Source of the DNA: an uncultured Eubacteriales bacterium | GTDB taxonomy: Bacteria > Acidobacteriota > Aminicenantia > Aminicenantales > Aminicenantaceae | Assembly: GCA_964449165.1 (NCBI GenBank) | Contig: CAYVAT010000004.1 | Span: forward strand, 91,317-155,316 | DNA length: 64,000 nucleotides | Reading direction: 5' to 3' | Shown here: one piece after another, positions 21,039-44,524 of the stretch | How positions within the stretch are numbered: the stretch's first letter is position 1 | How the letters are laid out: every line of letters begins with the position of its first letter | Program-made: the position numbers and the translations under genes | Notes under the pieces: generated by a model | Told to the model about the DNA's origin: nothing | Seen by the model: the letters and a program-made list of their open reading frames with translations, nothing else | The model's database searches: none

Positions 21039-22002
21039 ATCCCTTGAGTGTTAATGACAGTCCTTCAGATAATGTATATCTAGGCTTCCATCCAGTAAAT
21101 TTTTTTAGAAGGCTGTTGTCAAGGATCAGCGTTGAATTTGAAGGCTCATAATTACCTTGTGGTTGAACTTCGTTGATGGGAACAGAGCCTATGCGGCTTG
21201 CCATCTTAACCAGATTAAAAACAGTTGTTCCGATCCCAGTTGATAAATTGACAGTATAACATCCATGCTTATCTGTGGAAACAAATAGATGTATCAGGCC
21301 TTCAATAACATCATCGACGTATATGAAATCTCTTATCGGGGTTAAATCACGAACAACAATTCTTTCGCCATTTTTAATTCTTTTTATAACAGTGCTAACA
21401 ACCGTATCTTCATTGCTTCCTAGCCCATAGACATTGCCTAATCTAGCGATAAAACAGGTTATTTTAAAACTCTTTGAATGACCTGTTATTATTGCTTCTG
21501 CGGATAATTTCAAGCCGGCGTAGATATTTTGAGGAGTTGGGGAAGTTTCCTCGGTCACCGGCTGCCTATGATAATCTCCGTAAACAAGCCCGGTGGATGG
21601 GAAAATGAATTTCCCTATTTTGTTTTGTCTGCAAAATTCTAATGCCTGAAAAGTCAGTAATACATGTGATTTGAAGGCCTTTAGCGGATTTTCTTCACAC
21701 TCTCCTGCGTGAGCAATGCCTGCCATATGAAATACAGCGGTTATACCTCTTTTTTCTGACAGCAGTTCAGATAGTGCTTCATCTGATTTCTCAGGAAAAC
21801 CCCCATGGATAAAACGAAAGGAATTATGCAGGATAATTTCGGCAGAATGTTTCGGAAATTGTTTGTTGGAATCAATCCCAACAACAAATGCTCCATTATC
21901 CAGGAGAGCCTTCACTAAACGGCTGCCCAAGAATCCGCTGGCCCCTGTGACCAGGATTCCGTATCTTTCTAAACTACCAGTTTTCGATATCATCGGGGCC
22001 AA
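21031..22002 (-). CDS. NAD-dependent epimerase/dehydratase-family SDR
   Basis: ILVTGASGFLGSRLVKAL Rossmann motif, YAGLK YxxxK. Confidence 0.75.
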   Translation of the reverse strand: MAPMISKTGSLERYGILVTGASGFLGSRLVKALLDNGAFVVGIDSNKQFPKHSAEIILHNSFRFIHGGFPEKSDEALSELLSEKRGITAVFHMAGIAHAGECEENPLKAFKSHVLLTFQALEFCRQNKIGKFIFPSTGLVYGDYHRQPVTEETSPTPQNIYAGLKLSAEAIITGHSKSFKITCFIARLGNVYGLGSNEDTVVSTVIKRIKNGERIVVRDLTPIRDFIYVDDVIEGLIHLFVSTDKHGCYTVNLSTGIGTTVFNLVKMASRIGSVPINEVQPQGNYEPSNSTLILDNSLLKKFTGWKPRYTLSEGLSLTLKGYD

Positions 22003-23011
22003 TCTGAGAGTCCTTTTGAATATCTCTTGCGGCTTTCTTGCCCAGTACCCTGTTAAGTTCGGGTGCTAAAATGGCTCCAGTCCCGGGTCTTTTTACCCAT
22101 GTGTTTTCAAGAGAGAACACTTTTCCAGCCCTTACAGGAGCAATGGCCACAACAGAGGCATAGGCAAAATCGATGACTGGTTGTTCCTCCGGCAGGATAG
22201 TTTTATGGCCACCCAGGGCTGAAAATATTGCTTTTGAACCTTTTACTAGCTCTGTCAGCTCATCTGGCTCTATAGAAATTGGAACGTCGGGACCGGGCCA
22301 CTCACGAGTTATCGTGAAGTGTTTTTCAAGGGCAGCAGCCCCTAATGCCACAGCACCCAGGCATGTGTATATGCCGATGGAATGATCACTTAGCCCGACA
22401 GGTAAACCAAACATATCCTGCAGCTCCTTTATAGCGCCGAGACGAACCTTTTCATATGGGGTCGGATACATAGAAGTGCAATGCATCAGCATGAGAGGTG
22501 TTTCATATTTTTGAATAGCCTTAACTGATTTTTTAATGGATTCCACATCATTCATTCCAGTTGATAATATTATTGGCTTTCCGAACTTGGTGATATGTTC
22601 CAATAGGGGAATATTGTTGCATTCACCTGAGCCGATCTTGAAAGCTGAGACATTTATAGACTGGAGACGGTCTGCTGCCTCTCTGGAAAAGGGAGTACAG
22701 AGGTATATGATTCCTTTGTCTTCACAGTATTTCTTTATCCGTATTTCCTCCTCCCCAGTCAGCTCGCATCTCTTTATTATGTCCCAAAGACGCTCTTCGG
22801 ATATCTCACCTGGTTTCATGTCTGTGGGAATCATTTCAGCCTCTGTGATATGACTTTGAAATTTTACACAGTCAGCCCCTGCCTTGACTGCCGCATCCAC
22901 ACACTGGATTGCTTTATCAAAGCTCCCTTCATGATTGATGCCTACCTCGGCTATTATAAAAGGTGGATATTGAGGGCCGATTTTACGGTGATTTATCTGG
23001 AATTCCATCAT
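21974..23011 (-). CDS. NeuB-family nonulosonic acid synthase, copy 2
   Basis: FIIAEVGINHEGSFDKAIQCVDAAVKAGADCVKFQSH plus C-terminal SAF domain; clearly paralogous to, but distinct from, copy 1. Confidence 0.85.
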   Translation of the reverse strand: MMEFQINHRKIGPQYPPFIIAEVGINHEGSFDKAIQCVDAAVKAGADCVKFQSHITEAEMIPTDMKPGEISEERLWDIIKRCELTGEEEIRIKKYCEDKGIIYLCTPFSREAADRLQSINVSAFKIGSGECNNIPLLEHITKFGKPIILSTGMNDVESIKKSVKAIQKYETPLMLMHCTSMYPTPYEKVRLGAIKELQDMFGLPVGLSDHSIGIYTCLGAVALGAAALEKHFTITREWPGPDVPISIEPDELTELVKGSKAIFSALGGHKTILPEEQPVIDFAYASVVAIAPVRAGKVFSLENTWVKRPGTGAILAPELNRVLGKKAARDIQKDSQIGPDDIENW

Positions 23012-23956: not shown

Positions 23957-24668
23957 TTGTTACCTCTCTGGATTGTTTCATTAAGAATTCGACAATCTTA
24001 AAATCCAATTCCGTATCAATATGAATGGACCGCTCTTCTGGAACCAGAAAGAGACGAGTACGAGGGGGGATTCGCTTGCCGATATCCATGATTGCCTCTC
24101 TTGAGTATATCCATACGGTGGTGTCAAGATCATACACAGGAGGGCACTCCTGACGGCATCCTATATCCCTGTCTGTGGGCATCAATATCTGGACAAAACC
24201 GTCTTCTAAACAAACCATATTAAAATAAGGGCTGCGGTGCGCTTCACATCCAGAGACTACGGCTTGGCAGGCACCATCATGGTGAAACAGTGACAAGGCT
24301 TCTTCTACGTCCTTGACCTTACGCAGGGGGCTGGTTGGATCTAACAATACTAGTATCTTCACTCTTTCTCTGTATATTTCCTCAACGGACTGAACGGCAT
24401 GCTGCATCACCGGCAGCATCGGTGTGTCATCCTTTGCCAATTCAGGAGGCCTGATAAAAGGGACCTCAGCTCCCCATTTTCTCGAAATTTCTGCGATCTC
24501 CGAATCGTCTGTTGAAACGATTGGCTTATCTATAAAAGAGCAGGCCCGTGCACACTCGACAGTATAAGATATCAAAGGTTTTCCCAAAAGGTGTCTGATG
24601 TTTTTCTTTTTTATACCCTTTGATCCACCCCTTGCAGGAATAAGTCCGAGCACCAGACCTGAATTCAT
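23949..24668 (-). CDS. CMP-nonulosonate cytidylyltransferase, copy 2 (LegF/PtmB/NeuA-like)
   Basis: LGLIPARGGSKGIKKKNIRHLLGKPLISYTVE...VSTDDSEIAEISRKWGAEV. Confidence 0.85.
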   Translation of the reverse strand: MNSGLVLGLIPARGGSKGIKKKNIRHLLGKPLISYTVECARACSFIDKPIVSTDDSEIAEISRKWGAEVPFIRPPELAKDDTPMLPVMQHAVQSVEEIYRERVKILVLLDPTSPLRKVKDVEEALSLFHHDGACQAVVSGCEAHRSPYFNMVCLEDGFVQILMPTDRDIGCRQECPPVYDLDTTVWIYSREAIMDIGKRIPPRTRLFLVPEERSIHIDTELDFKIVEFLMKQSREVTNV

Positions 24669-24676
24669 TCCTAAAC

Positions 24677-25708
24677 CTATTGACTTTTTATCTCAGAAGG
24701 CCTGACAGCCCTCCTGGTTTCTGAAGCTTTATGGGCAGCTAATGCTACCTTAAGAACAGCGATTCCGTCTTCAAGATCAACCGCTGGATTGTCTCCATTC
24801 TTTATCCTGTTCAGGAAGTGCTTCATGTGATCGACAAACATGGTATTCCTCTCGAATGAAGCCGGTTGATCGAAAATTCGGGCCTCTGATGTTCCTTTAA
24901 TGCTGAGCGTAACTTTACCGGAGCTGTAATCCCACGAGAGAGTACCTTTACTCCCCACAACTTCACAATCGCGTCTATAGTAGGGACTTAGGTAGTCCAT
25001 CTCGACTTGAGCCACCAGTCCATTGCCAAATCTCAGCAGAATCTGGGCAACATCTTCTGTTTCAATCTCCAGGTCAGATACATGATCGAGGAATGCGGCG
25101 ACATCGGAAACAGGGCCAAACCACCAGTAGAGATAATCCAATTCATGAATCAGGTCAAAAAGCACCCCACCTCCCTGATCTGATTTTGCACTGTAAGAAT
25201 GGCGGTAATCCTGTTCGGGGCGCCAATCAGGCAGATAGTGTCCAACGCTGGCTCTTGCTAAATAAGGCTTGCCGATTTCGCTCCTTTCCAGAAGCTCTTT
25301 TATTGATTGCAGGCCGGGATGAAATCTCATCATGCATCCAACTTCGATAACGAGTGATTTCTCCTCTCTCAGCCTCTTAAAATCCTCAATCCCTTCTAAG
25401 CTGTTCGATAATGGCTTCTCGAAGTATATATGAATTCCTCTCTTTGCAGCCGCAATGGCTGTCTCCATATGCTGATCAGTACGATTACTGATTATGACTG
25501 CATCTGGCCCGGAATCAAAGGCACTCTCTAAGGACGGAAAGACTCTAATCCCATGTTTTTTAGATAGCCCCTTACTTCTTTCTCCCCTATAACTGTAAGC
25601 AGACACAGACGTTCCTAAAGCAAGCAAATTCTTTATATGTCTGGTCCCGATTGAGCCGGTTCCCACAACAAGAACCTTTAAGTCTTTAAACAACACGGTT
25701 GGCTTCAA
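24677..25708 (-). CDS. Gfo/Idh/MocA-family NAD(P)-dependent oxidoreductase
   Basis: KVLVVGTGSIGTRHIKNL N-terminal Rossmann fold and ...IYFEKPLSNSLEG... consensus of GFO_IDH_MocA. Confidence 0.8.
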   Translation of the reverse strand: MKPTVLFKDLKVLVVGTGSIGTRHIKNLLALGTSVSAYSYRGERSKGLSKKHGIRVFPSLESAFDSGPDAVIISNRTDQHMETAIAAAKRGIHIYFEKPLSNSLEGIEDFKRLREEKSLVIEVGCMMRFHPGLQSIKELLERSEIGKPYLARASVGHYLPDWRPEQDYRHSYSAKSDQGGGVLFDLIHELDYLYWWFGPVSDVAAFLDHVSDLEIETEDVAQILLRFGNGLVAQVEMDYLSPYYRRDCEVVGSKGTLSWDYSSGKVTLSIKGTSEARIFDQPASFERNTMFVDHMKHFLNRIKNGDNPAVDLEDGIAVLKVALAAHKASETRRAVRPSEIKSQ

Positions 25709-25868: not shown

Positions 25869-26975
25869 TTATTTTGAGGAATCTTTGCTCTTTCTTATGA
25901 AATCGACGATTAAGGCCAGAAAAAAGCCTAGGAAAAGAGAAACAAACCCGCTTATCATGACCATCCTTGTCCTTCTTGGCCGAATGGGTCTAGAACTGGC
26001 AAAAGGCTCTTGGACAACGTGAATCAACTTAACATCTGTGGATTCTTCTTTACTCTTCACTTCTTTAAGTTTTTCTAAGAGACGCTTTAAACTCGGCCTT
26101 TCTGTCAATAAGGAATCGTACCTTGAGATGAACTCTGAGAAATCTTGGCCGATATCGGGCTTTTTTATTAATTTTTCCATTATTAAAAGCTGGTTGCTAA
26201 GGTTCCTTTCAGAGTTTTCGAGCAGCTTCTGCTGAACTCCTTGTCCCTCCCTGTTAGTCTGGAGGGTTGTGTTTAATGTATCTTTATAGGCTATGTTCTG
26301 CTGAATAGTGTTTGAATAGAGTAACAGAGCAACAGGATCCCCTTTACCTCCTTCGCTCAGCATACGGTCTCTTTGTTTGATAATAGATTCTGTATTTTCA
26401 TCAATCATCTTAATCTGCTTCCTTATTTTTGTTTCTGCGTCTTTCAACAGTTTTATCTGGTTTATGTAAAATACAATTTCATTTAATATCTCTTTAAACT
26501 TGTCTATTTTCGATGTGATTTTCCACGAAAAAGATTTTTCTATCTGGTTAAGCAGTTCTCTCATTATTATCTCACCCTGTTCAGGGTCTGTTGTGTCATA
26601 AGACACATTGATAATATAGGCCTCTCCGGGTTTTTTAGCAGTAAATTGCAAGCCAAAGGGAGGGATATTTAATGCATTAAAAATCTTCGGGTTATAGATT
26701 CCACCATTGATAAAGGAAACCATCTCATCGATTTTAGCTACTGGGACAAGTTCAACTTTCATGGTTTCAGGATCTAACTCCTCGATAGCCCCAGGACTTA
26801 ATGAAGCTGTTACCCTGTATACAGGTGTTATCATGTAGCTTCTTACTAAGGCAGCAATAACTGACAAGATGACGATTCCGATAATAATAAATTTCCATCT
26901 CCAGATGACCTTAATATAGTCATAGAGATTGATATTATCCTCGTAATTATCGGTCTTATATTCCGGGTTTTTCAT
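25869..26975 (-). CDS. Wzz/PCP-family polysaccharide chain-length determinant
   Basis: N-terminal TM (WKFIIIGIVILSVIAALV), long coiled-coil periplasmic region, C-terminal TM (VMISGFVSLFLGFFLALIV): classic PCP topology. Confidence 0.7.
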   Translation of the reverse strand: MKNPEYKTDNYEDNINLYDYIKVIWRWKFIIIGIVILSVIAALVRSYMITPVYRVTASLSPGAIEELDPETMKVELVPVAKIDEMVSFINGGIYNPKIFNALNIPPFGLQFTAKKPGEAYIINVSYDTTDPEQGEIIMRELLNQIEKSFSWKITSKIDKFKEILNEIVFYINQIKLLKDAETKIRKQIKMIDENTESIIKQRDRMLSEGGKGDPVALLLYSNTIQQNIAYKDTLNTTLQTNREGQGVQQKLLENSERNLSNQLLIMEKLIKKPDIGQDFSEFISRYDSLLTERPSLKRLLEKLKEVKSKEESTDVKLIHVVQEPFASSRPIRPRRTRMVMISGFVSLFLGFFLALIVDFIRKSKDSSK

Positions 26976-27058
26976 CCTGTGTCGAACCTCCCGTTTTTAG
27001 ATTTGTGAAATTCTTGCTTCTTCTATAATGACATTCCTTTATGCTGAATTATTATAGC

Positions 27059-27433
27059 TTAATCAGTATCTCGAAGTAATCCTTTTTTCTCTGTTTGTGA
27101 TAATGGATAATTCTCATCGCTAATTTCTTTCTCTAAATCTTTCTTTAATTCTTCAATCTCAATTCTTAAGACATCGTATTCATGCAACTTTTTATCCAGA
27201 AAATGATATGTAAGCTCCATCTTTTTCTTTATGCCTTTGGGTGTCAGAATATACATATAGGCAAGCTTTTTCTTTGAGTTTTTGAATTTCTCTGCCTTGA
27301 TCAGGCCTTTATCAATAAGGGCATTGAGGACGTAGTTCACCTTGCCAAGGCTGAGACCAAGCTTTTTAGAAAGGTCACGCTGGGAGAGGGTTTTGTCCTT
27401 TGCCAGTTCCTTCAGGATTTTAAGATTGTCCAT
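27059..27433 (-). CDS. Small winged-helix transcriptional regulator (MarR-like, EPS-locus-associated type) at the head of the glycan locus
   Basis: 124 aa; LSQRDLSKKLGLSLGKVNYVLNALIDKGLI helix-turn-helix with following wing; first gene of the co-directional block. Confidence 0.55.
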   Translation of the reverse strand: MDNLKILKELAKDKTLSQRDLSKKLGLSLGKVNYVLNALIDKGLIKAEKFKNSKKKLAYMYILTPKGIKKKMELTYHFLDKKLHEYDVLRIEIEELKKDLEKEISDENYPLSQTEKKGLLRDTD

Positions 27434-28225
27434 TTCTGTTTAAGAAAATAGGATTAGAGATAGGCTACCGCCGTCGGGATCTCACTCTACCTCTTTCTCA
27501 ATAACTTACCTATCAGAGGCAGTGCGTTCAAACTCTGAACAAGTATATCCAATTAGTTTCGGAAAAGTCAACCGGAGATTTTTAACGCGGATAAAGGAGC
27601 GGACGTTAAAGGCCCTTGAAAGGAGGCAGAGGGTTTGTATGTCAAGAAGGGAAAGGTTCAATAAATTCGATATTTGATGCTTTTTCGTTATGTTATGATA
27701 CCTATATAAAGCAGGCATAAAGATTGTCAAAACAACAATTCAACAATATGACAAAATAGATAGCACACATGAACAAGTTTAATATTAATAATACTGTCTA
27801 TCTACAGTAATTTACAGCAACGAAATAGATGACTGAAGTAGCCCCCAATTGGGGCCACTTCAATGAGCTAATATCCTTATTAAACCACACACTAAAATAA
27901 TGAACCCATGATACAGGAGATTTTTTATGTCGCGTTTCATTCCTGTTTTCCAATAGAAGAAATTGATAGTTAATGAAAGATAAAAGAAAAAGAATTAGTA
28001 AGCTACCGCTGTTAGAAAAATCAGCAAAACAGATCAAATTGGTCTATCTAAATGATAGTCAAAGCCAGACTAATACTTTGATATATATTCTCAATATCCC
28101 AGAGTAGGCTGGCTAATCTTAAACTTTTTTGATTATTTTGTCCGGGTGCCATTCCAATACTTGCCATTTCTCATTTATAGTAAAAATTTTTATTATTATG
28201 GACATATCCTTAGAAGCTTCTCCAT

Positions 28226-28639
28226 TTATAATAGATAGACAATTTTATCTTCCCTGATTTCACAGGCAACAGATGGAGGCACCTGCTTAATCTTCTCAGT
28301 CAGATGCATTCCTTTCTCTATGATGAAGCCTTTGTGGCGATCATGAAAGAGTTTATTTATGTATTGATAACGTCGATTTAAGTAATAGGTATAACCGCTG
28401 TTGATTCGACGAATAGTAGGGGTAAGGTTGTTTTTACATGTTTCCATGAGATAAGCTTCCAGATCAGGTAGATGGACATAACCATAAAATGTGAGTTTAC
28501 TTTTGATCCTTTGTTGTTTGAGAAGATTTATAAAATAGCTTTTGTCCTGATCATCTTTAAAGATTTCTCGGCTGTCATTTCCTTTGGAACTGACGCGATA
28601 AGCTAAATCTTTGCCCTCAATCCTTGGGTGTCGTGTCAT
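28226..28639 (-). mobile_element. Degenerate IS200-like/COG1943 (Y1 HuH transposase, REP-associated-type) remnant, 137 aa, probably inactive
   Basis: N-terminus MTRHPRIEGKDLAYRVSSKGNDSREIFKDDQDKSYF follows the PRIExxGAxYHVxxRGN consensus of this family; the region aligning to HuH reads YVHL (one His lost) and the GRYK catalytic-Tyr region reads DRHKG. Confidence 0.5.
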
Positions 28640-28877
28640 ATAGAAGATTCCTCGTTTCTTAAAGCAGTATTTTTGATACTTTAATCTAAAGGAATTTATT
28701 TGTCAAAGGCTAACATACCAGTGTTTCAGGGCAAAGTGGTGAGGCTTTTCTCTTCTCCAAATGTCAACTGAAAGATCTTTTTGAGTATGATCAGCATCAT
28801 TGAGGGCGAAGCGAAACAGCTTTGATGTATTGATTCTACAGGGAAGATGTGTTAAATTTTTTTCTGAAGCCACAGAA

Positions 28878-31052
28878 ATGATGGAAAAAAAGAGGATTTT
28901 CTTATTCTTCATTCTTTTCATCGTAATTCCTTTGTTGATAGGCAATATCCTGTTCTCCAGTGAAGCAGGTTTCTATTCTGAGGATCTAAACATAATTGCT
29001 CGTTATCAGCAGAAGACCGAAGATCACATTCTCGCGACAGGAAATGTTGAAGTCCACTACAGGAATATTAAGCTTTTTGCTGATAGGATAGAGCTCAACA
29101 CAAAAACCAAAGATGTTTATGCTGAAGGGAATGTCTCGATTCATTTTCCTGAGGAGGTAATAGATTGTGAGAGGGTTCACTTCAATTTAGATTCCTCTCG
29201 AGGAGAACTTAAAAAAGTTTATGGCAGGATTCAGCCATCTGTTTTTTATGAGGCAGATTCAATAGAAAGAAAGGATGCGAATCTTTACAATCTCCGAAAG
29301 GCAAAAATCACGTCTTGCAATCAGGCCGTTCCTCGTTGGAAATTTTCTTGCGCAGAGGCTAACTTCAAGAAAGATGATTATATCGAGATGAAGCACTCTG
29401 TATTATCCATCAAGAAAATACCTATCTTTTACTTTCCTTATCTGAGGTATCCCCTTAATAGAGAAAGGGCTACTGGATTTTTAATGCCTCAATTTGGTTA
29501 CTCAGGAGTAAAAGGCCTTTTTTATTCGCAGGGATTTTATCTGGCTCTAAAAAGAAACATGGATGCAACCTTTAACCTTGATTATTATTCTGGAAGAGGA
29601 TTCGGAGGCGGATTGCAGTATAGATATCTTTTTTCTTCTGGAACGGGAGGAGATCTGAGTGCGTATATTTTTAAATTTAAAGAAGACCCGGAGAGGGAAG
29701 ACCTCGATAAAGCCTATATTATCCGTTTTAACCACAACCAACCCCTTTTCTTAGGCTTTTCTCTTATAGCTAACATCGATTATCAAAGTTCTTTTGATTT
29801 TTTGAAAGAGTTTGACAATAATTTCAAGCGTGCCGTCGTTTCCAACCGTGCTTCAGTGGCCTATCTTTCGAGATCCTGGTCTAGTTGGAATCTAAGTGCC
29901 CGTGTGTCGAGGTTTGAAACATATTTTGCCGAAGCAAATACCTCGAGCATTAAGCATAATTTTCCTTATATAGCCCTTAACATTTCCCAGATGAAAATCT
30001 TCTCCCCTTTATACTTTTCTCTCTCTTCTGTCTTTGACCGCTGGGAATTTGGATGGGATTTCGAATATCGTGCCGGCACGCAGAGACACTCGCAGAGTTT
30101 AAATCTCAAGCCTGAACTGACTTTTCCCTTTACTACAATACCCTGGATGACTTTGAATTCTAGATTTGTGGCCAATTTTAATTATTATTTCAAAAGCTTT
30201 GAACCCGGGAGTGTTCGCTCTCCAGGACAGGGGAAACTTATTGACGAACCCCTATTAAGCACCAATTATTTGATCAACGTGGAACTTACTGGTCCTGTGT
30301 TTAACAAAGTGTTTTTCAGGGCTGATGGCAGTCCAAAATTGAAACATATCATCGAGCCAAATATTAGCTATATATATGATAGTCCGGTATCTGCTTCCGA
30401 TAGAATTATCACCCTCACTGGCTATTATTTTCGGTATCATCAGTTAACATACAGCCTGACAAACCGCTTTTTGATAAAACAGCACGATATGACGAGAGAA
30501 GTTTTCACCCTAGGGCTATCGCAGACTTTTTATCTTGCTCCCGAGGAGAGTCCTTTACAAATGTATAAAGATTTTTTTGAGGGAGATATCCCTCGATTTT
30601 CTGATATCGAAGGATATATGAGGTTTTACCCTTCTCATAAATACAGCATCGATATCTCAACTTCATTCAATCCTTATCAAAAGGTTTTTCCAAGTTTGCA
30701 CATGGCAGTTAACTTCGGCAGGTATGGAGATCCGTTGATGTGTAGCGTGAGCTGGTTTAAGGGAACTAATCCATATTATAAAGATAGAATTTATGATCGT
30801 CATCAGATCAATTTTACGGGGGGCATGAAAATCCGGAAGCTTAACCTAGAGGCTTTTACAGTACTTGATTTCAATATTCAGGAAAAAAAGATGCTCTACT
30901 CTCTTTTCAGTCTTGTTTACCATTATCAGTGCCTTGATTTTAAGGCTGACCTTAAGATATTCTATTTCCGTGAAAAACCAGAAACACAGTTCCGCATTTC
31001 ATTCGGACTGGGGAATATCGGCAAGACTACAGACCTCTTAGGAGGATATTGA
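28878..31052 (+). CDS. lptD: LPS-assembly outer membrane protein LptD (OstA)
   Basis: Signal peptide after MMEKKRIFLFFILFIVIPLLIG; OstA-like N-terminal domain (ATGNVEVHYRNIKLFADRIELNTKTKDVYAEGNVSI) and long beta-barrel C-terminal region; start set at ATG 28878. Confidence 0.8.
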   Translation: MMEKKRIFLFFILFIVIPLLIGNILFSSEAGFYSEDLNIIARYQQKTEDHILATGNVEVHYRNIKLFADRIELNTKTKDVYAEGNVSIHFPEEVIDCERVHFNLDSSRGELKKVYGRIQPSVFYEADSIERKDANLYNLRKAKITSCNQAVPRWKFSCAEANFKKDDYIEMKHSVLSIKKIPIFYFPYLRYPLNRERATGFLMPQFGYSGVKGLFYSQGFYLALKRNMDATFNLDYYSGRGFGGGLQYRYLFSSGTGGDLSAYIFKFKEDPEREDLDKAYIIRFNHNQPLFLGFSLIANIDYQSSFDFLKEFDNNFKRAVVSNRASVAYLSRSWSSWNLSARVSRFETYFAEANTSSIKHNFPYIALNISQMKIFSPLYFSLSSVFDRWEFGWDFEYRAGTQRHSQSLNLKPELTFPFTTIPWMTLNSRFVANFNYYFKSFEPGSVRSPGQGKLIDEPLLSTNYLINVELTGPVFNKVFFRADGSPKLKHIIEPNISYIYDSPVSASDRIITLTGYYFRYHQLTYSLTNRFLIKQHDMTREVFTLGLSQTFYLAPEESPLQMYKDFFEGDIPRFSDIEGYMRFYPSHKYSIDISTSFNPYQKVFPSLHMAVNFGRYGDPLMCSVSWFKGTNPYYKDRIYDRHQINFTGGMKIRKLNLEAFTVLDFNIQEKKMLYSLFSLVYHYQCLDFKADLKIFYFREKPETQFRISFGLGNIGKTTDLLGGY

Positions 31053-35799: not shown

Positions 35800-37269
35800 T
35801 TAAATATCGAGTTCGAGCTGGCGTTCTTGAGCTAGTTTCCTTTCTTTTTCTATAGATTCCAGAATTTCCGGAGTCACATCACCAGTGGGATAAATACCGT
35901 CAAAGCAGGCTCCGCAGAAATTGGTGAGCTTCTTGTTGCCTAACTGGACAGCTTTTTTTAGGGACTCGAGAGTTTGATATATGACCTTGTCTGCACCAAT
36001 TTTTTTAGTTATCTGGTCAAGGTTCGCATTCCGGGCGATAAACTCGGTTTTGGTTTGCATGTCGATTCCGTAGACGCAGGGATATCTCAGAGGAGGAGAA
36101 TAGGCGGAGAAGTAAACCTTTTTTGCACCACAGTCACGGATCATTTGGATGATGGCCCTGGAGGTGTTTCCTCTGACAATGCTGTCGTCCACGAGCAGGA
36201 CATTCTTTCCTTCGAGTTCTGAGACGATAGGATTCAGCTTGTGACGGACAGAAGTCTTTCGCTCTTCGTCTGCTGGCATGATAAAGGTCCGGCCAATATA
36301 GCGGTTCTTTACCAGAGCTTCTCTATATTTTAAATTAAGCCTGCGAGCGATTTCTATGGCGGCGTCCCGCGCAGAATCAGGTACAGGAACAACGACGTCT
36401 ATCTTCAGGTTGTGTTTTTTTATCTCTTCCGCCAGAAAACGGCCCAGGTTGACCCGGCAATCGTAGACATTGACATTGTCGATGAAGGAATCGGGCCGGG
36501 CAAAATAGACCCATTCAAAAAGGCAGGGAGTATGGGGACAATTGGCGATCTTTCGGGTGTGAAGACCTCGATTCCTGTCGATGAAGAGGGCTTGGCCGGC
36601 TTTCACGTTTTTGATGTCGGAGAAATTCATGATATTGAGGGAGACGCTTTCGGAAGCTATGGCGTAGGAAGTTAAAAGCCCGTCCTCCCTCTTTCCGTAG
36701 ACAAGAGGTTTGATTCCATAGGGATCGCGGAATGCAACCATCCCTTGTCCGGCTATATAAGCAACAACGGAATAGCTTCCTCTGGCTTTTTTGAACACGC
36801 CTTCGACAGCTTTGAACACATGCCTGGGAGCTAAGTTTTTGGTTTTTTGCTCGGCCAGTTCCTGGGCGAACACATTGAGGATTGCTTCCAGATCACAGTC
36901 CGAGTTTAGGAGGCGGTGGTATTTTTCGAAGATGATTTTTCTGAGTTGGTCATAGTTGATGACATTGCCATTGTGGGCCATGATGATACCGAAGGGGGAA
37001 TTAACCAGAAAGGGTTGGGCATCTTCTCCTCTTCCGCCTCCCACGGTCGGGTAGCGGGTGTGGCCGATACCGATATTTCCCCTTAAACGGTGGAGATTTT
37101 CTGCGGTGAAGATGTCCCGAACCAGCCCATTTCCCTTTTTTATGTGAAAACGACCATCATAGGTAATGATTCCTGCGGCATCCTGACCCCGATGCTGTAC
37201 AGCCAACAGGCCTTGATAGAGGTCTTTGAAGGTGTCCTCGTTTCCCCAGATACCGATAACACCACACAT
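35800..37269 (-). CDS. purF: Amidophosphoribosyltransferase (glutamine PRPP amidotransferase)
   Basis: MCGVIGIWG Ntn-Cys start, GATase-II domain, PRTase motif VLLVDDSIVRGNT, C-terminal Cys cluster; start set at the MCG Met (37269) rather than 37287. Confidence 0.9.
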   Translation of the reverse strand: MCGVIGIWGNEDTFKDLYQGLLAVQHRGQDAAGIITYDGRFHIKKGNGLVRDIFTAENLHRLRGNIGIGHTRYPTVGGGRGEDAQPFLVNSPFGIIMAHNGNVINYDQLRKIIFEKYHRLLNSDCDLEAILNVFAQELAEQKTKNLAPRHVFKAVEGVFKKARGSYSVVAYIAGQGMVAFRDPYGIKPLVYGKREDGLLTSYAIASESVSLNIMNFSDIKNVKAGQALFIDRNRGLHTRKIANCPHTPCLFEWVYFARPDSFIDNVNVYDCRVNLGRFLAEEIKKHNLKIDVVVPVPDSARDAAIEIARRLNLKYREALVKNRYIGRTFIMPADEERKTSVRHKLNPIVSELEGKNVLLVDDSIVRGNTSRAIIQMIRDCGAKKVYFSAYSPPLRYPCVYGIDMQTKTEFIARNANLDQITKKIGADKVIYQTLESLKKAVQLGNKKLTNFCGACFDGIYPTGDVTPEILESIEKERKLAQERQLELDI

Positions 37270-37443
37270 TTCTCTCTCATGATTCATTATAATCGTTTTT
37301 TTCCTTTTATGAAAGGAGGTGATATGCCCTGTAAACTCTTTCTTTTCCTTGATGAGAGAGGATTATATATCCCTCATATTAGCTATCAAGGAAATGGAAG
37401 TGCTTCTATGTGTCCTTTATAAAAGCCTGAGGCCACCATAACC

Positions 37444-39768
37444 TCAAATTTCTTGATCATTAAAGTGAATTAATAAGATTGTAAATGAGTCTTTAGTGTA
37501 TTCACCTGAATTTGGAGTAAAATTGGAGCCCCATCGGGCTATTCCCTTTGATATGCGTATCTCATCCAGCCAGCCATTGAAATGCTCTTCAGCGCCTCTG
37601 GATCCGATATGGAGCGGAGCTTCTGAATCGTATATTGAGACCTGCCCTATATCATGACTTTCACCTAGCTGAAAGCCATCAACAAAGGCCATAAGGTCTG
37701 AATCCTTCCTGACTATGGCTATGTGGTACCATCTATCCTTTGATGCAGACCAGTGGAACTTCGCATCCGTGTCGTTTTCTCCATCTGAACTATAGGAGAA
37801 CTTTATGCTTTTCGATTCTCCCTCCCATGCAATCTGCCATGCCTTGTCAGGACTGTAATACGGGTAGCCAACGAGAACCTGAGTTCCAGATGTATGTACA
37901 AATCTCACCCAGAAATCTATCGTGAAGTCTTCCGAGCTAAATGCCCAGCCTGGACGGTCTGCAACCTGCAGGTGGCTTCCGGCTCCATCAAAGAAAACAG
38001 ATGCACTGCCAAATTTTGGGTGTGCTGTATCAATCCGAACATTTCCATGAGGTATTATACTTCCCAACCGGAAGAGTTTGAATATGCCAATATGATAGAT
38101 TTCGGTGACATCGAACTCTTGATCCTTGATCCTTATTTTCTTTGGTTTATTTTGAAGTTGACTGAGAACAGGATCCTTATCCCAAGACCTGAATGAGGCA
38201 ATATATTTGATGTCTTTAATAAATAGATTTTTTGTATAATATGTAACAATATTTTTCTCGGGTATATCAGAAAGATAAGTAGCACAGGGCACCATTTTTC
38301 CAGGCATTAGTATCATTTCCTCGTTTTTCACTCTGTTTTTGACAACATTTAATCCAGCTTTTAAATCCCACAAACCGCCATACATATTATTGACTGTTGA
38401 TATGTGAGTGGAGACTAATGGAGTTATCAGCAAAAATAGAGGCAATAATAATAAATGACCTTTCGACCTGAAATGCCCTACTTTAAAAAAAACGTATACA
38501 CAGATTGGCAGAAATATTAAAAATCTTTTGAGGCTGTTTATATCAAAGCTGAGACTGAAAAACTCATGGTATGAATTTCTTATATACGGTGTGTTGAAAG
38601 CGCTATAAGCTACAATAATTCCCAATATTCCCAAAATAGATGCCACGATTATTTTTTTTTGATGTGGCCATCGCTTTAGAAAATATTCAATACCAGCGAT
38701 TGTATAAAGAGGGAACATCCACTCAATGAAATAGAAAAATCGCCAGGTTGTGTAGAAATAAAACCACAGGAAGAACAAGTACGCCAGAAAAAAGGTGTGC
38801 ACCTTCCAGTTGTTCAGCTTATTAAATTTAATCAGATGGAATAATCCAATCAAAATAATTAAAATGTTAATAATCCATACTATTTGTACCCACCAACTGC
38901 TATGAAATCTGGTTTCAGGCGTTACAGAAGCCCAATGATCAGCTGGCAAATAGGATAAGGTTATGGTACGCAACAGGGAAATAAAATCTCCTGTTGGCTT
39001 GCTTGTAACAAAAAGTTTATGCTTGAACAGGGCTGGAATATATCCACCTTTACCGATGAAAAAAAAATGATTGACCAGCAGCCAGATGGCAGAAGGCAGA
39101 AGGACGATAAAAGTTAGAAATATTAGACGCCATTTTTTTTTAGTAATAATTTTGGGCAAATTGGCAAGCACCGCTAATGCTGCGTCATACCGAGTAAATG
39201 CAGCGAGACCAGAGATGGACAAGGAGAGTTTTTCATTTGTGACATAAAAGGAGAGAAGGATCAGGACCAGCATTGTAGCCTCAGGTAGGGGTTGTGTTCC
39301 ACAATAGAGAGAAAGGCTTGAAAAAGCAAAAATCCAGCTGACAAGGAATGAATTTTTTATTCCGATCTTCTTGCTTATCTTATAGATAAGAATTATCGAA
39401 CATAGATAAGTGAAATTACTCAGAAGGATACCAGAATAAAGGATAGCTTTCTTTACTGAAATAAGCTGTGAAACCAATCCCATTAGCAGAGGGAAAAGAG
39501 GTTCTCTTAAAGTTCCAAATGGCAGATTAAAATGAAGCAGTGCTTCAGTAATATCCTTAAAAGCAAAAAAATCGCTTAAAGGAGAATAGTATTTTCCAGA
39601 GAGTAAAACTAGATAATAACAAGATATTCCTAATGTTAATGCAAGGGCCGAGATAGAAGCGACATCCTTCTTTTTGGGGTAATCACTATTTTGTGGTTTT
39701 TCACACAGTGGGAATTTGCTTTTTTTGGGTTGCAGCAATTCTCTCCATTTTTTATTCAAATTTAACAA
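37444..39768 (-). CDS. Polytopic GT-C-type membrane glycosyltransferase (ArnT/PMT-like) fused to a C-terminal LamG/ConA-like domain
   Basis: About 12 predicted TM helices over the first 450 aa with the loop and TM pattern of ArnT/GT39/GT83 enzymes; last 180 aa (FTIDFWVRFVHTSGTQVLVGYPYYSPDKAWQIAWEGE...FNGWLDEIRISKGIARW) about 70 percent identical to the C-terminus of the sulfatase-like protein at 1-2040. Confidence 0.6.
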   Translation of the reverse strand: MLNLNKKWRELLQPKKSKFPLCEKPQNSDYPKKKDVASISALALTLGISCYYLVLLSGKYYSPLSDFFAFKDITEALLHFNLPFGTLREPLFPLLMGLVSQLISVKKAILYSGILLSNFTYLCSIILIYKISKKIGIKNSFLVSWIFAFSSLSLYCGTQPLPEATMLVLILLSFYVTNEKLSLSISGLAAFTRYDAALAVLANLPKIITKKKWRLIFLTFIVLLPSAIWLLVNHFFFIGKGGYIPALFKHKLFVTSKPTGDFISLLRTITLSYLPADHWASVTPETRFHSSWWVQIVWIINILIILIGLFHLIKFNKLNNWKVHTFFLAYLFFLWFYFYTTWRFFYFIEWMFPLYTIAGIEYFLKRWPHQKKIIVASILGILGIIVAYSAFNTPYIRNSYHEFFSLSFDINSLKRFLIFLPICVYVFFKVGHFRSKGHLLLLPLFLLITPLVSTHISTVNNMYGGLWDLKAGLNVVKNRVKNEEMILMPGKMVPCATYLSDIPEKNIVTYYTKNLFIKDIKYIASFRSWDKDPVLSQLQNKPKKIRIKDQEFDVTEIYHIGIFKLFRLGSIIPHGNVRIDTAHPKFGSASVFFDGAGSHLQVADRPGWAFSSEDFTIDFWVRFVHTSGTQVLVGYPYYSPDKAWQIAWEGESKSIKFSYSSDGENDTDAKFHWSASKDRWYHIAIVRKDSDLMAFVDGFQLGESHDIGQVSIYDSEAPLHIGSRGAEEHFNGWLDEIRISKGIARWGSNFTPNSGEYTKDSFTILLIHFNDQEI

Positions 39769-40099
39769 ACAACTGATACCTTTAAACGCTTTTAGGATTT
39801 ATATATCAGGGAAAATAGGAATGTCAAATAGACTGAGAGAAGCTTCCTTCTCGATATTAAACAAAACATTTTTCTTCACAAATGAGCTGAAGATGAGCTG
39901 TGAGGGAGAAAGATGTGAGGCTGAAATTGAGATGCATTTTTCCCAAACATTTGAGTCCTGAAGGTTCCAATTCTTGAAAATGAGGCAAAGAATGGAGATA
40001 ATTATTTCTTTTTAAAGAAGGAAATTGCTATTCATTGTGAAAAAATTCTTGTCTCTGCTCATCTCTCGTCTCTTCTCGGGTTTTTTCTGGAGAGAATAG

Positions 40100-41422
40100 A
40101 TGTTCAATAATGCAAGAGCAATGTTCCATGTGATGAATGAAGCAAAGCTTCATCGCCTTGAACTCGATAAACTTGTATATCGACGTCTCAGGGCCATACT
40201 GGTATCTGCTTACCTGAACGTCCCTTACTACAGGGAACTAATGAAAAATGTAGGCTACGATCCTTCTCAGGACTATCAAGGCCCTGAGGATCTTTCCAAG
40301 CTTCCGATTACAAAGAAGGAAGTTATAAAACAGAGAAGAATCCGAGACTTTATCATGCAGCATAAAGATCTTTCTGGATGTTTAAGAGATACAACATCCG
40401 GGTCAACAGGAATTCCATTGGTAGTTTATAGAACTTGTTATGAACGCGCTTTTCAGATCGCCAAGTTTCTGCGCATCTTATTTTTGAATAGATACTCGAT
40501 GAGCAATAAAGTGATGTCGCTTACCAGACCGGATAAGCTTACAGAGGGACGGAGTGTTGTCCAGCGATTTGGATTTCTAAGAAGGAATGCGATCGACTTT
40601 CTTCGCTACTCACCAGAAGAGATGGTCGATATTCTCATCGAATACAAACCAGATGTGTTATATGGCAATCGCGCGCATCTTGAACTCATGGCACTGGAAT
40701 TGCAACGCCGTGGAATTCAGTGTGATAGCTTAAAGATTGTCTTGACAACTGGGGAAGCCATTCACGAGAATACTCGGCGGCTCTGCCAGAAGCAGTTTGG
40801 GGTTGACCCCGTGGAGACATATGGATCAATAGAGATGGGAATAATGGGATACGAAACTCCAGCGCATGATGGACTTCATCTCTATGAAAATCTGACTTAC
40901 TTTGAATTCCTGGACGAAGAAGAGAAACCAGTCCCACCTGGAAAACCTGGAAGAGTCATTGTGACGGATCTGATAGGGAAACTCATGCCTTTTATCAGGT
41001 ATGATCAAGGAGACTTTGCAGCTTTTGAGTATGGGAAAGACCTGAATGGTAATACTCAGCGGAGGCTAACCCAAACCATAGGTCGCGAGAATGACTACGC
41101 ATTGCTTCCAGATGGGACGAAACGTCCCTATAATGATTTGGTCAAGATAGTAGACAAATTTGAAGATATCAGGCAATTCCGTATTGTGCAACAAAAGCGA
41201 AGCCTATTCCAGATATTGATTGTCGCGGATACTTCTTATTTTCTCTCAATCCACGATGATCTCATGCGTCTGCTGCAGAAAAAATTTCCTCCGAATGTGA
41301 GCTTCAAAATTGCCCAGGTAGAGAAAATCGAACCAGACCCAAGCGGCAAAATGAGGGCATTCGTTTCAGAAGTTGACCGGATTTCCGATAAAGTTCCTGG
41401 AGAGATATCAGTAAAGGGATGA
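40100..41422 (+). CDS. Adenylate-forming enzyme of the phenylacetate-CoA ligase/CapK/F390-synthetase family
   Basis: DTTSGSTGIPLVVY (T-S-G-S-T-G P-loop of PaaK family) and family-typical length. Confidence 0.75.
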   Translation: MFNNARAMFHVMNEAKLHRLELDKLVYRRLRAILVSAYLNVPYYRELMKNVGYDPSQDYQGPEDLSKLPITKKEVIKQRRIRDFIMQHKDLSGCLRDTTSGSTGIPLVVYRTCYERAFQIAKFLRILFLNRYSMSNKVMSLTRPDKLTEGRSVVQRFGFLRRNAIDFLRYSPEEMVDILIEYKPDVLYGNRAHLELMALELQRRGIQCDSLKIVLTTGEAIHENTRRLCQKQFGVDPVETYGSIEMGIMGYETPAHDGLHLYENLTYFEFLDEEEKPVPPGKPGRVIVTDLIGKLMPFIRYDQGDFAAFEYGKDLNGNTQRRLTQTIGRENDYALLPDGTKRPYNDLVKIVDKFEDIRQFRIVQQKRSLFQILIVADTSYFLSIHDDLMRLLQKKFPPNVSFKIAQVEKIEPDPSGKMRAFVSEVDRISDKVPGEISVKG

Positions 41423-41530
41423 TACTCTGATCCATCCAACATTGAGATGTCTGTTCTTTTTTGATGTAGCTCAAAAATTTTTACTCTCTGGCATCACATT
41501 TTTGGCTGATGGAGCTGATGCGGAGGTACA

Positions 41531-42502
41531 TTGATATCGAGGAAAAGCGTATTCTGGGCCTTGCGAATAATAATAAGCGCAGCGCTGATTGGATACCTGC
41601 TGGCAACAGCTAACCTCGGCGAAATGTTTGTCAAAATCAAGTCATGTCATGTCTCACTTTTTTTATTCAGTCTTCTGATAGGCGTCCTTCGTAATGTGAT
41701 ATTTGCCTATCGATGGAGAGTCCTACTTACTGGAAGTGGAATTAAAGTTCCCTTTGTAACATTGGTCAAATTTTACTTCGGGGGGACTTTCTTTAATCTT
41801 TTCCTGCCTACGACTTTAGGAGGAGATGTGGTGAGAGGCTACGATCTTGCTATACATTCAGAGAAGAAGATGGATGCAGCTTCATCTGTGTTGGCAGAGA
41901 GAATCATTGGTTCCTTTGCACTCATTTTCATTGCTTTGTTTGCCATATTATTTGGACGGAAAAGGATTGAAAATACTCAAGTGATTAATGTCATTCTTAT
42001 CGTATGTATCAGTTATTTTACATTGGCGATAATCGTATTTAACGCCAGGATTATGAAGAGACTTATTGCTCTGTTCAAGTTCGGCTCACTCTGGAGCATA
42101 GGAAAGCGGCTGGATCGGATGTATAGTTCGCTGCGTGCGTTCTTTGCCAACAAAGTGATTCTATGTCTTTGTTTTGTTCTCTCCATAGTCTGCCAAACGC
42201 TGACAATGGTGGCGGTTTACCTTCTTGCATTGGCCATCAACCTGAGGCTCCCGCTTGTCTACTTTTTCATGATATTGCCCATGATTTGGATTGTAACCAT
42301 GGTTCCTCTGTCAATAAATGGACTGGGAGTAAGAGAAGGGGCTTTCGTTTTTTTCTTCACAGAAGTGGGAGTATCTGGCTCTTCGGCACTATTGTTTTCA
42401 TTCCTGAATCTTTCACGAATGATTGTTCTCGGCTTGATATGCGGGACCATCTATTTATTCTCTCAGATGCCTCTTCCATTCAAAAAACTCACAAAGAAGT
42501 GA
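41531..42502 (+). CDS. Flippase-like integral membrane protein (UPF0104 / lysyl-phosphatidylglycerol-synthase TM-region family)
   Basis: 8 TM helices; ...FYFGGTFFNLFLPTTLGGDVVRGYDL... is the family signature. Confidence 0.7.
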   Translation: MISRKSVFWALRIIISAALIGYLLATANLGEMFVKIKSCHVSLFLFSLLIGVLRNVIFAYRWRVLLTGSGIKVPFVTLVKFYFGGTFFNLFLPTTLGGDVVRGYDLAIHSEKKMDAASSVLAERIIGSFALIFIALFAILFGRKRIENTQVINVILIVCISYFTLAIIVFNARIMKRLIALFKFGSLWSIGKRLDRMYSSLRAFFANKVILCLCFVLSIVCQTLTMVAVYLLALAINLRLPLVYFFMILPMIWIVTMVPLSINGLGVREGAFVFFFTEVGVSGSSALLFSFLNLSRMIVLGLICGTIYLFSQMPLPFKKLTKK

Positions 42503-42586
42503 AGGCAGATTATTTTACGCCAAACAAGTAATATGTATTTTGTGGAATTTTTAGATGGCTATTCTTTGGAAGTGGAAGAATAAATT

Positions 42587-43561
42587 TTAGTCTGCTCGGT
42601 ATAGCTTCCTCTTAGATATATAATAATCAGCATAATAGTGAGAACATTCTTCGCACAAGGAAGGAGGCTTCTTTAGGAGATGCTTTTTCCTCATTTCCCT
42701 CATGATTTTATTTTTGAATAGACTCTGGAGATTTTCTCTTTTTGCATTTCCTATGACCATTTTTCCATCAAAATCCACACAACACGGAACAACATCTCCA
42801 TTCCACAAAACTACCAAGATTCGCCAGAGTTCCCGGCAGGGAGTATAATTTTTCTTGGTAATAGTAAAAAATTTTGGCTGGATATTCACAAAATCTGCCT
42901 TATTTTTCCATCTGATGAAAAAAGAATCAATCTCTGCAGTCGTCTCGTTAAATATCAGCATGGAAACTTCTACCCAGGTCTTTTTTTTAGAATCATTCCT
43001 CATCTGAATGAAATTTAATATATTAGACTCAATTTTTTCATAGGGAAAACCTCTCACTCTTTGATAGGTTTCCTTGCCTCCATCTACTGAAAACTTTATT
43101 ATATCCAATCCGCTTTCCAGGAGTTCTCTGGTAAGAGATTTATCCAGAAGAGTTCCATTCGTTGTTAAAGCTGTTTGCTTTCCTCTTGAATGGGCATAAC
43201 GAATCATTTCTATGATATCAGGGTGAATTAATGGTTCTCCCCAGTTGGTTAGATAAACTCTTTGAATCTCAGGATTTAAATCGATGATTTTTTTAAAAGT
43301 TTCAAATTTCATATATCCTTTTTCCCTCTTCATCTCTTTCGGTACAGGACAGCAGATACATTCAAGGTTACAAGTGTTGTTTGTTTCGATACCGACAGTT
43401 GTCAGTTTATATGCTCCAGGAATATGAGCAAGGCGGAAGAATTGATTAAGTGTTTCGCTAAATATCAATTTAGGGGTTGAATATCGAGCGAGAAGGGAAG
43501 GGAACAGCTTTGATTTGTTAAAAATTTTTGTAGTAATTAATCGAACGAGACTCTTATACAT
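42587..43561 (-). CDS. Radical SAM enzyme with C-terminal SPASM/twitch-like Cys-rich domain
   Basis: CNLECICC (CxxxCxxC), SVDG motif, C-terminal CCVDFDGKMVIGN...LCEECSHYY cysteine cluster. Confidence 0.75.
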   Translation of the reverse strand: MYKSLVRLITTKIFNKSKLFPSLLARYSTPKLIFSETLNQFFRLAHIPGAYKLTTVGIETNNTCNLECICCPVPKEMKREKGYMKFETFKKIIDLNPEIQRVYLTNWGEPLIHPDIIEMIRYAHSRGKQTALTTNGTLLDKSLTRELLESGLDIIKFSVDGGKETYQRVRGFPYEKIESNILNFIQMRNDSKKKTWVEVSMLIFNETTAEIDSFFIRWKNKADFVNIQPKFFTITKKNYTPCRELWRILVVLWNGDVVPCCVDFDGKMVIGNAKRENLQSLFKNKIMREMRKKHLLKKPPSLCEECSHYYADYYISKRKLYRAD

Positions 43562-43565
43562 CTTA

Positions 43566-44399: not shown

Positions 44400-44524
44400 C
44401 AGAGATGGTAAAAAGATTCTCTATAACGACTCATACGATAATTAATTGGCAAGTATCATAACATCCTGGAATCCAAAATATCAACACGTAGAAAATTTGA
44501 TAATTTTGTTAAAAACCTGAAATT

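Follow-up and report, generated by a model that had tools for sequence, protein, structure and literature searches.

An interval beside lptD in an Aminicenantes-type bacterium: features of the proposed degraded head of a surface-glycan locus

Features of the marR-lptD interval

Positions 27434-28877 of the window (the whole 64-kb stretch of DNA analyzed here) lie between a marR-type regulator gene and an lptD-like gene, and contain a 137-amino-acid (aa) open reading frame (ORF) beside 792 bp that a sequence-only reading had described as an AT-rich, non-coding spacer next to a crippled IS200-type transposase gene. We propose that here an Aminicenantes-type bacterium retains a surface-glycan locus head in degraded form, a reading to which, taken whole, we assign a probability of about 0.72. 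By comparison with related contigs, the 792 bp resolve for the most part into a recognizable composite: the pseudogene's 3' end, what deletion has left of a second gene, and two leader elements that are conserved and each contain a box resembling the Escherichia coli ops signal. The features, by position in the window, are as follows.

27059-27433, minus strand: marR, a MarR_EPS-type regulator gene (TIGR04176, 132 bits against a cut-off of 88)
27434-27726: upstream region of marR
27434-28225: the 792-bp "spacer" between marR and the 137-aa ORF
27461-27476, minus strand: ops-like box 2, CGACGGCGGTAGCCTA, core GGCGGTAGCCTA, 27 nt upstream of the marR ATG
27542-27571, minus strand: promoter-like site TTGACT-18-TATACT, a consensus match only, ~66 nt upstream of box 2
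27727-27940, minus strand: 5' and 3' stubs of a gene for a 478-aa polytopic membrane protein that is intact in contigs L005 and L069
27832-27864, minus strand: 30-nt palindrome GAAGTGGCCCCAATTGGGGGCTACTTCAGT in place of deleted DNA
27990-28197, minus strand: last ~10 codons of the gene family described below and its conserved downstream leader, from nucleotide identity to relatives
27999-28014, minus strand: ops-like box 1, TAACAGCGGTAGCTTA, core AGCGGTAGC (G to A at position 1)
28063-28114, minus strand: conserved imperfect leader hairpin AGCCAGNCTA...TAGNCTGGCT, with inner GAGAT/ATCTC
28189-28299, minus strand: out-of-frame pseudogene continuation, codons ~113-149 (LRRLSRCLHLLPVKSGKIKLSIYYKWRSF*GYVHNNK), from tblastn with P0004, P0005 and P0108
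28226-28639, minus strand: the 137-aa ORF
28295-28639, minus strand: pseudogene codons 1-115, in frame, the N-terminal part of a RAYT-like Y1 domain, from tblastn
28640-28877: intergenic region between the divergent pseudogene and lptD, with sigma-70-like and ribosome-binding-like sites
28878-31052, plus strand: lptD-like gene (ATG at 28878 or 28881; PF19838, E 3.8e-18)

Beyond lptD, rmlA/C/B and epimerase genes form a conserved flank. As the sequence-only reading had noted, the spacer holds no convincing ORF, only short ones of 42-79 aa, and it is AT-rich (GC 0.345, against 0.435 for the window). This is no anomaly of composition, however, because the value is ordinary for intergenic DNA in the window, where other such stretches range from 0.24 to 0.47, and the label "non-coding spacer" does not fit the gene remains and leader elements listed above. 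An Rfam scan of 26900-29000 and of nine relatives' loci returned only a chance snoRNA match (E 0.18). The relatives of LptD put the bacterium among Aminicenantes. Four of the related contigs (L001-L004) come from the same species and are 98.3-100% identical, and L005 is from a relative with 93% nucleotide identity. A product identical to that of the 137-aa ORF is present in NCBI, JGI and Logan records. JGI also calls a 39-aa gene within the leader hairpin (L002 936-1055 and L003 994-1113, or about 28048-28167 of the window, minus strand), which is probably spurious.

The 137-aa ORF as a pseudogene stump

Codons 1-115 of the ORF align to longer relatives at 55-65% identity (tblastn with P0004, P0005 and P0108), the intact P0108 reaching 65% over 115 aa. 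A frameshift lies near codon 115; the alignment resumes in a second frame at 28299-28189 and then meets an in-frame stop. The annotated ORF stays in the first frame beyond the frameshift and ends at the stop at 28226. The frameshifted part includes the former tyrosine helix, in which the RY[IV]HLNP of relatives corresponds to SRCLHLLP in another frame. L005 has the same frameshift.

Past 28189, tblastn detected no remains of residues 150-323 in the spacer. The DNA comparison accounts for them: 27990-28197 shares 70-78% nucleotide identity with the gene end and ~180 bp downstream in L014, L015, L017 and L018, and it joins directly onto codon ~149. Gene-end DNA abuts that codon, and we therefore place here a deletion of ~490 bp (codons ~150-313) that includes the whole C-terminal domain. 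The missing residues escape protein search because they were deleted rather than decayed, and the DnaA domain-IV-like helix-turn-helix that ends the intact protein is not present in the window copy.

What is left of the coding sequence appears relaxed. Between the window and L005, the ratio of nonsynonymous to synonymous substitution rates (dN/dS) is 0.48-0.57 for the ORF and 0.15 for lptD; constraint on the ORF is significantly weaker than on lptD (p 0.006) and not distinguishable from neutrality (p 0.11), and dN/dS in the out-of-frame tail is 0.92. Five of 20 family-invariant positions are changed, and the GRYK motif has become DRHK. Truncated copies are common among relatives; in L069 only codons 1-41 remain, at 5267-5389.

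From these alignments we read the 137-aa ORF as the 5' remnant of a ~320-aa gene, and the gene itself as dead, given the frameshift, the stop, the ~0.5-kb internal deletion, the relaxed dN/dS and the changed invariant residues. The sequence-only reading had thus rightly seen a decayed gene that is shorter than usual (137 aa against ~320 aa). Its motif assignments fared less well: the region equivalent to the HuH motif is not YVHL but L60-E61-A62, which aligns to NHYH of canonical relatives, and the supposed RYK tyrosine region is the GRYK motif, with the tyrosine helix lying past the frameshift.

Upstream of the pseudogene stand a sigma-70-like site, TTGACA-17-TAAAGT, at 28706-28678 on the minus strand and a ribosome-binding-like GAGGAA before the ATG at 28639. 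Promoter calls are made here on position only, because the sigma-70-like scan found 6 sites where shuffled sequences predict 6.1.

A protein family with lost catalytic histidines

The ORF's likeness to Y1 transposases, which the sequence-only reading had recognized, is real; it is weak when the ORF is taken alone and becomes secure only through the intact relatives. Aligned to Pfam PF01797 (Y1_Tnp, gathering threshold 23 bits), the check that reading had proposed, the ORF gave no match at E<=1; intact relatives score 15.7-18.1 bits, below the threshold, and the canonical P0131 scores 43.4 bits. Similarly, for NCBIfam REP_Tyr_transpos (NF047646, cut-off 80), the ORF scores 15.5 bits and its relatives 21.9-45.4 bits. 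Neither the ORF nor the family profile retrieved a Y1 transposase from the PDB by sequence. The fold, by comparison of structures, is that of a Y1 transposase; the AlphaFold model of P0108 reached a mean confidence (pLDDT) of 93.7 with a 71-sequence alignment and only 53 with a 16-sequence alignment.

Close homologues of the 137-aa ORF are few, and some are longer. A search with P0005 returned 146 relatives, mostly of 319-323 aa. With the family profile, 24,152 cluster representatives were matched at E<=1e-3, and at E<=1e-30 the number was 692. P0131, which this profile retrieves with an E of about 1e-67, scores above the cut-offs of two Pfam models, Y1_Tnp and Bac_DnaA_C. Relatives of ~320 aa inspected from the profile list keep YH(V/I)xxRGN, NH(Y/F)H, GRYK and RY(I/V)HLNP. 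In the Aminicenantes-type subfamily, by contrast, the HuH histidines are absent from 20 of 20 members inspected, every intact one included. There, (Q/R/L/K)-Y-(S/A/G/Y) replaces the H-(Y/F)-H of canonical relatives, YH has become YY, HLNP has L instead of its Asn, and the tyrosine position is Y, H, N or L. Because all 20 lack HuH, the catalytic apparatus was lost in the family and not in the window copy; the catalytic motifs are indeed substituted, as had been claimed from the window alone, only not by local decay.

The intact gene thus encodes a RAYT-like Y1 fold that has lost its HuH histidines and is fused to a DnaA domain-IV-like DNA-binding domain. The combination of Y1_Tnp and Bac_DnaA_C is the architecture of subclass 2.1.2, or "TIRYT", of Quentin et al. 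2018 (PMC6006769). A distant full-length homologue with both domains (25% identity) lies in another Aminicenantes genome, at L008 6762-7691 on the minus strand, inside an rml/epimerase cluster and next to an epimerase gene pair that is inverted relative to the window order.

A fixed position beside lptD

An intact family gene stands divergent from lptD in L014, L015, L017, L024, L027, L031, L033, L036 and L045. In L024, L031 and L045 wzz lies between the two, and on the shorter contigs L034, L038, L040 and L046 wzz is the upstream neighbor. Downstream, on the same strand, follow sugar-nucleotide and glycan genes that differ from contig to contig. At least 10 independent contigs have an intact ~320-aa homologue in this place, next to lptD and ahead of the glycan genes. 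The order in relatives therefore runs from the rml operon and lptD, both pointing away from the junction, across to wzz (where present), the ~320-aa gene, a ~170-nt leader and variable sugar-biosynthesis genes. The contigs of the distant relatives P0128, P0129 and P0131 are too short to show context.

No consistent terminal inverted repeats were found at the intact genes of L014, L015, L017 and L024, where only AT-rich chance pairs occur. The family gene is present in a single copy in the window, and no repeated palindromic family was detected in 27400-28900 or elsewhere in the 64 kb. We regard the family gene, on this comparative evidence, as a resident of one fixed site and not as a mobile insertion sequence; the IS200-type insertion scar proposed earlier is contradicted by intact homologues at the same site and by the lack of inverted repeats.

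L017, whose head gene is an intact P0108-type copy, has in addition a 3' fragment (residues 253-305) of a P0009-type gene 3.5 kb farther downstream, at 5556-5714, with its own ops-like box at 5934. This fragment was apparently left behind when cassettes were stacked or exchanged.

Ops-like boxes in the leaders

Box 1 corresponds by homology to the one found after the family gene in relatives with an intact copy, and box 2 is preceded by a GGTAGAGTG box, as in other loci. In an unanchored alignment the leaders share an invariant block, TAAC(G/A)GCGGTAGC(C/T)TA. In 35 of 37 loci, GCGGTAGC stands 55-210 nt (median 173) past the stop of the family gene and shares that gene's strand. Two copies occur in the window, against 0.03 expected (16-mer, two mismatches); each falls within the spacer and is on the operon strand. 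Across 36 non-redundant leaders, T-3, A-2, A-1, G1 and T13 are each held in at least 31, a conservation not imposed by the search, which did impose positions 2-9 and 11; position 10 is variable, as in the ops consensus. These alignments show a conserved ops-like box placed after the family gene and before the glycan genes.

In the E. coli ops12 element, GGCGGTAGCGTG, RfaH requires G4, G5, A7 and G8, and pausing in E. coli depends on the TG at positions 11-12 (PMC5995543). Because the four essential bases are kept, the box reproduces the RfaH-contacted core, with A mostly at position 12. When matched to GGCGGTAGnnTG, box 2 (GGCGGTAGCCTA) agrees at 9 of 10 specified positions and box 1 (AGCGGTAGCTTA) at 8 of 10.

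The core is intact in two places where the neighboring family gene is dead, namely window box 2 and L069, and a box also occurs deeper inside loci with no adjacent family gene (L014 8636 and L017 4163). The L069 box, GGCGGTAGCGTC at 5508, has 11 of 12 bases as in E. coli ops. Of the GCGGTAG matches in the distant Aminicenantes contigs L009 and L010, the one inspected, at L010 2892, was set aside as chance, since it is antisense in a coding region and has no flanking consensus. No MarR homologues were found in the other loci, and no literature was found that links ops or JUMPStart to this bacterial group.

Leader structure and a second deleted gene

The leader hairpin has 17 predicted pairs, five of them with compensatory changes (alignment A5), such as GAGAT/ATCTC in the window against GATAT/ATATC in L005; its single-sequence fold is not exceptional (z -1.4). 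It may be a terminator of the family gene or a protein- or RNA-associated element. The hairpin precedes the box in P0108-type loci, and P0009-type loci have purine-rich repeats and a ACAATTTAAATTGT palindrome in its place. In L024, L025, L027, L035, L036 and others, purine-rich arrays (GAATAGAC, GAACAGAC) stand before ACAATTTAAATTGT, 100-150 nt before the box, and look like iterated protein-binding sites. Closer to marR, TTGACT-18-TATACT is a candidate promoter of the marR-wzz-NulO gene array.

Between the two leaders, the membrane-protein gene has undergone a ~1.1-kb internal deletion, with the palindrome in its stead, and has lost another ~130 nt at a TTGAA microhomology. Both L005 and L069 (71% aa identity; 5639-7075) carry an intact copy of the gene. 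Its 478-aa product has no Pfam or NCBIfam match and only five homologues, none usefully annotated. The palindrome forms a strong terminator-like hairpin (dG -24.8 kcal/mol, z -5.7) on the operon strand, with a T-rich stretch after it; it is unique in the window and was found only in the same-species contigs L001-L004. Placed between leader 1 and the marR promoter, it could now terminate transcription. Filler DNA and an element footprint are candidate origins for the palindrome.

A variable and recombining glycan locus

All called ORFs at 2123-27433 lie on the minus strand, with short gaps, over ~25 kb. This array is led by marR, the first of about 22 co-directional glycan genes, and wzz, and it includes genes for NeuB, a CMP-sugar synthetase, a UDP-GlcNAc 2-epimerase-like protein and several epimerases/dehydratases. 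Relative to genes at 45-64 kb, those at 1-27.4 kb are lower in GC (0.427 vs 0.465; Mann-Whitney p 2e-4) and in GC at third codon positions (GC3; 0.426 vs 0.505; p 7e-6), as the sequence-only reading had judged by eye for the NulO locus and the housekeeping end. Its proposed comparison of synteny was also informative: gene content beside lptD differs among relatives, and in distant Aminicenantes the rml/epimerase genes beyond lptD are conserved and the glycan-locus side is not.

Within the species, L002 and L003 carry patches with 6-8% single-nucleotide polymorphisms (SNPs) in the NulO genes, at 21700-22700 (neuB/epimerase) and 24200-24700 (CMP-sugar synthetase/oxidoreductase); between wzz and lptD the figure is about 0-0.3%. 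Such a mosaic is suggestive of imports by recombination. The glycan locus appears from these comparisons to be variable and recombining, and the earlier idea of a boundary therefore holds in that sense: a variable, lower-GC locus does begin beside lptD, but its edge is not marked by an insertion-sequence scar.

A second low-GC block (gene GC 0.388) was noted at 37400-44400, between purF-like (35800-37287) and pfkB (44525-45547). It encodes a 774-aa Laminin_G_3 protein, AMP-binding-like, LPG_synthase_TM and radical SAM/SPASM proteins and a methyltransferase. It looks like another variable insert, since the purF-like gene and pfkB are adjacent in L007, L008, L010 and L011.

Proposed explanation and alternatives

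We infer that the box is an elongation-control signal, that the intact protein is a regulator and that the gene with its leader is a recombination flank. Under this proposal the boxes would lie in the 5' leader and work there as ops/JUMPStart does in E. coli, by pausing or anti-termination, so that RNA polymerase could transcribe through the ~25-kb gene array. The intact family protein would serve as a non-catalytic DNA-binding regulator of the locus head, and the gene-plus-leader module as a homologous flank for swapping glycan cassettes; cassette exchange across the module would also explain the truncations of the family gene. In the lineage studied here, the family gene may have become dispensable as control passed to the marR-led unit with its own box. 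A more specific version, that a dead transposase (RAYT-like Y1 plus DnaA-like) was recruited as the regulator of the glycan locus head and acts through an ops-core leader to give read-through independent of RfaH, is in our judgment unlikely. Such a recruited protein might recognize GGCGGTAGC or the hairpin in single-stranded or structured DNA, in the manner of RfaH at ops. RAYTs offer a parallel, as they reportedly recognize GTAG next to a hairpin (work on 4ER8). If this version were true, the ops signal would have either an independent or a shared origin outside Proteobacteria.

Several points weigh against the degraded-head proposal, and those that concern the ORF would be expected if it were instead a still-functional shortened protein, a domesticated mini Y1 domain. 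In L005, at 93% nucleotide identity, the ORF is again 137 aa long; no SNP within it separates three same-species contigs; it keeps the promoter-like site and the GAGGAA upstream; and its dN/dS of about 0.5 is below 1. Some residual function could thus persist. Yet such a protein would be without the former catalytic tyrosine helix and the whole DNA-binding domain, would end in an out-of-frame tail with a dN/dS of 0.92, and would carry changes at 5 of 20 invariant residues with a dN/dS not significantly off neutral (p 0.11); moreover, L069 is down to 41 codons and retains an intact box and next gene. We consider a functional mini protein improbable. Still less probable, indeed very hard to sustain, is that the ORF is the remnant of a mobile IS200/IS605-type or REP-associated transposase marking the edge of an acquired glycan island. 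The Y1 fold, the lower GC and GC3 of the glycan genes relative to the housekeeping end, the differing gene content beside lptD and the frequency of truncated copies are all compatible with it. It is opposed by intact homologues at the same locus position in many contigs, by 20 of 20 inspected subfamily members without HuH histidines and with Y, H, N or L at the tyrosine position, by the lack of terminal inverted repeats or flanking repeat arrays, and by a single copy in the window that misses the Pfam and NCBIfam cut-offs.

Other difficulties concern the box. The count of GCGGTAGC, 55 in 0.99 million strand-bases where composition predicts 7.3, comes from loci that were collected through the family gene and are phylogenetically related, not independent. 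Of 36 leaders, 29 have A at position 12 and 7 have the G of the TG that E. coli needs for pausing. Rfam JUMPstart (RF01707) has no match at E<=1 in the window region or nine relatives' loci, and tblastn with E. coli RfaH and NusG found no RfaH/NusG-like gene in the window or the fetched loci, a search in which BLAST may miss diverged paralogues. RfaH itself is reported to be largely confined to Proteobacteria, and ops recognition to have arisen late in its evolution. The boxes could instead be promoter or operator DNA. Specifically, GGCGGTAGC may be the DNA target of the family protein (an operator, or a hairpin or single-strand site) or part of a promoter, rather than an elongation signal, which we hold to be possible though doubtful. 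The box stands at a fixed 55-210 nt after the family gene; the ACAATTTAAATTGT palindrome and repeated purine-rich units that flank it are typical of protein-binding sites; protein and leader subtypes covary, the P0108 type with the hairpin and the P0009 type with repeats; and the GTAG-plus-hairpin recognition noted above from the 4ER8 work would suit such a target. In favor of an elongation signal, the core stays intact beside a dead family gene at window box 2 and in L069, boxes lie inside loci without an adjacent gene (L014 8636, L017 4163), and nine consecutive bases are shared with ops in the genomic setting that ops has in enterobacteria.

Significance and comparison with known systems

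The window feature is, in itself, an ordinary pair of dead genes; the family and the ops-like box are what merit follow-up. No description was found in the searchable literature of three things: a subfamily of non-catalytic Y1 (RAYT/TIRYT-like) plus DnaA-type proteins at a fixed junction between lptD-rml and a hypervariable cassette; a conserved box with nine bases identical to E. coli ops in a phylum with no reported RfaH; and several independent truncations of the family gene, which fit a swapping of cassettes over the gene and its leader. Were the box to act like ops, this type of control over long polysaccharide operons would either be much older and more widespread than thought or have arisen twice, and the adjacent family protein would be the obvious candidate reader.

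Relative to subclass 2.1.2/TIRYT (PMC6006769), the present family has the same two-domain architecture and ~320-aa length. Canonical TIRYTs, however, keep HuH and the tyrosine and are described with terminal inverted repeats; the subfamily has neither, and it is tied to lptD and glycan loci. RAYTs (TnpA-REP; PDB 4ER8) and the TnpA of IS200/IS605 differ in similar ways, as the subfamily lacks the HuH histidines and the Asn of YxHxNP and does not conserve the tyrosine. Moreover, no REP arrays or subterminal hairpins were found beside the family gene, its position is fixed, and the window copy appears to be a pseudogene.

The closest likeness of the box is to ops/JUMPStart. The two agree throughout positions 1-9, the core GGCGGTAGC, and in having T at position 11. 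Both also occupy coding-strand leaders of long polysaccharide gene arrays, where a variable glycan cluster has its conserved edge; the flanks and the phylum differ. Finally, in the UpxY/UpxZ system of Bacteroides, as here, a locus-specific regulator gene heads each variable polysaccharide locus, beside the leader. The proteins are unrelated, a NusG paralogue there and here a dead Y1 plus DnaA-like domain with a putative regulatory function, and the family gene precedes the leader rather than following it.

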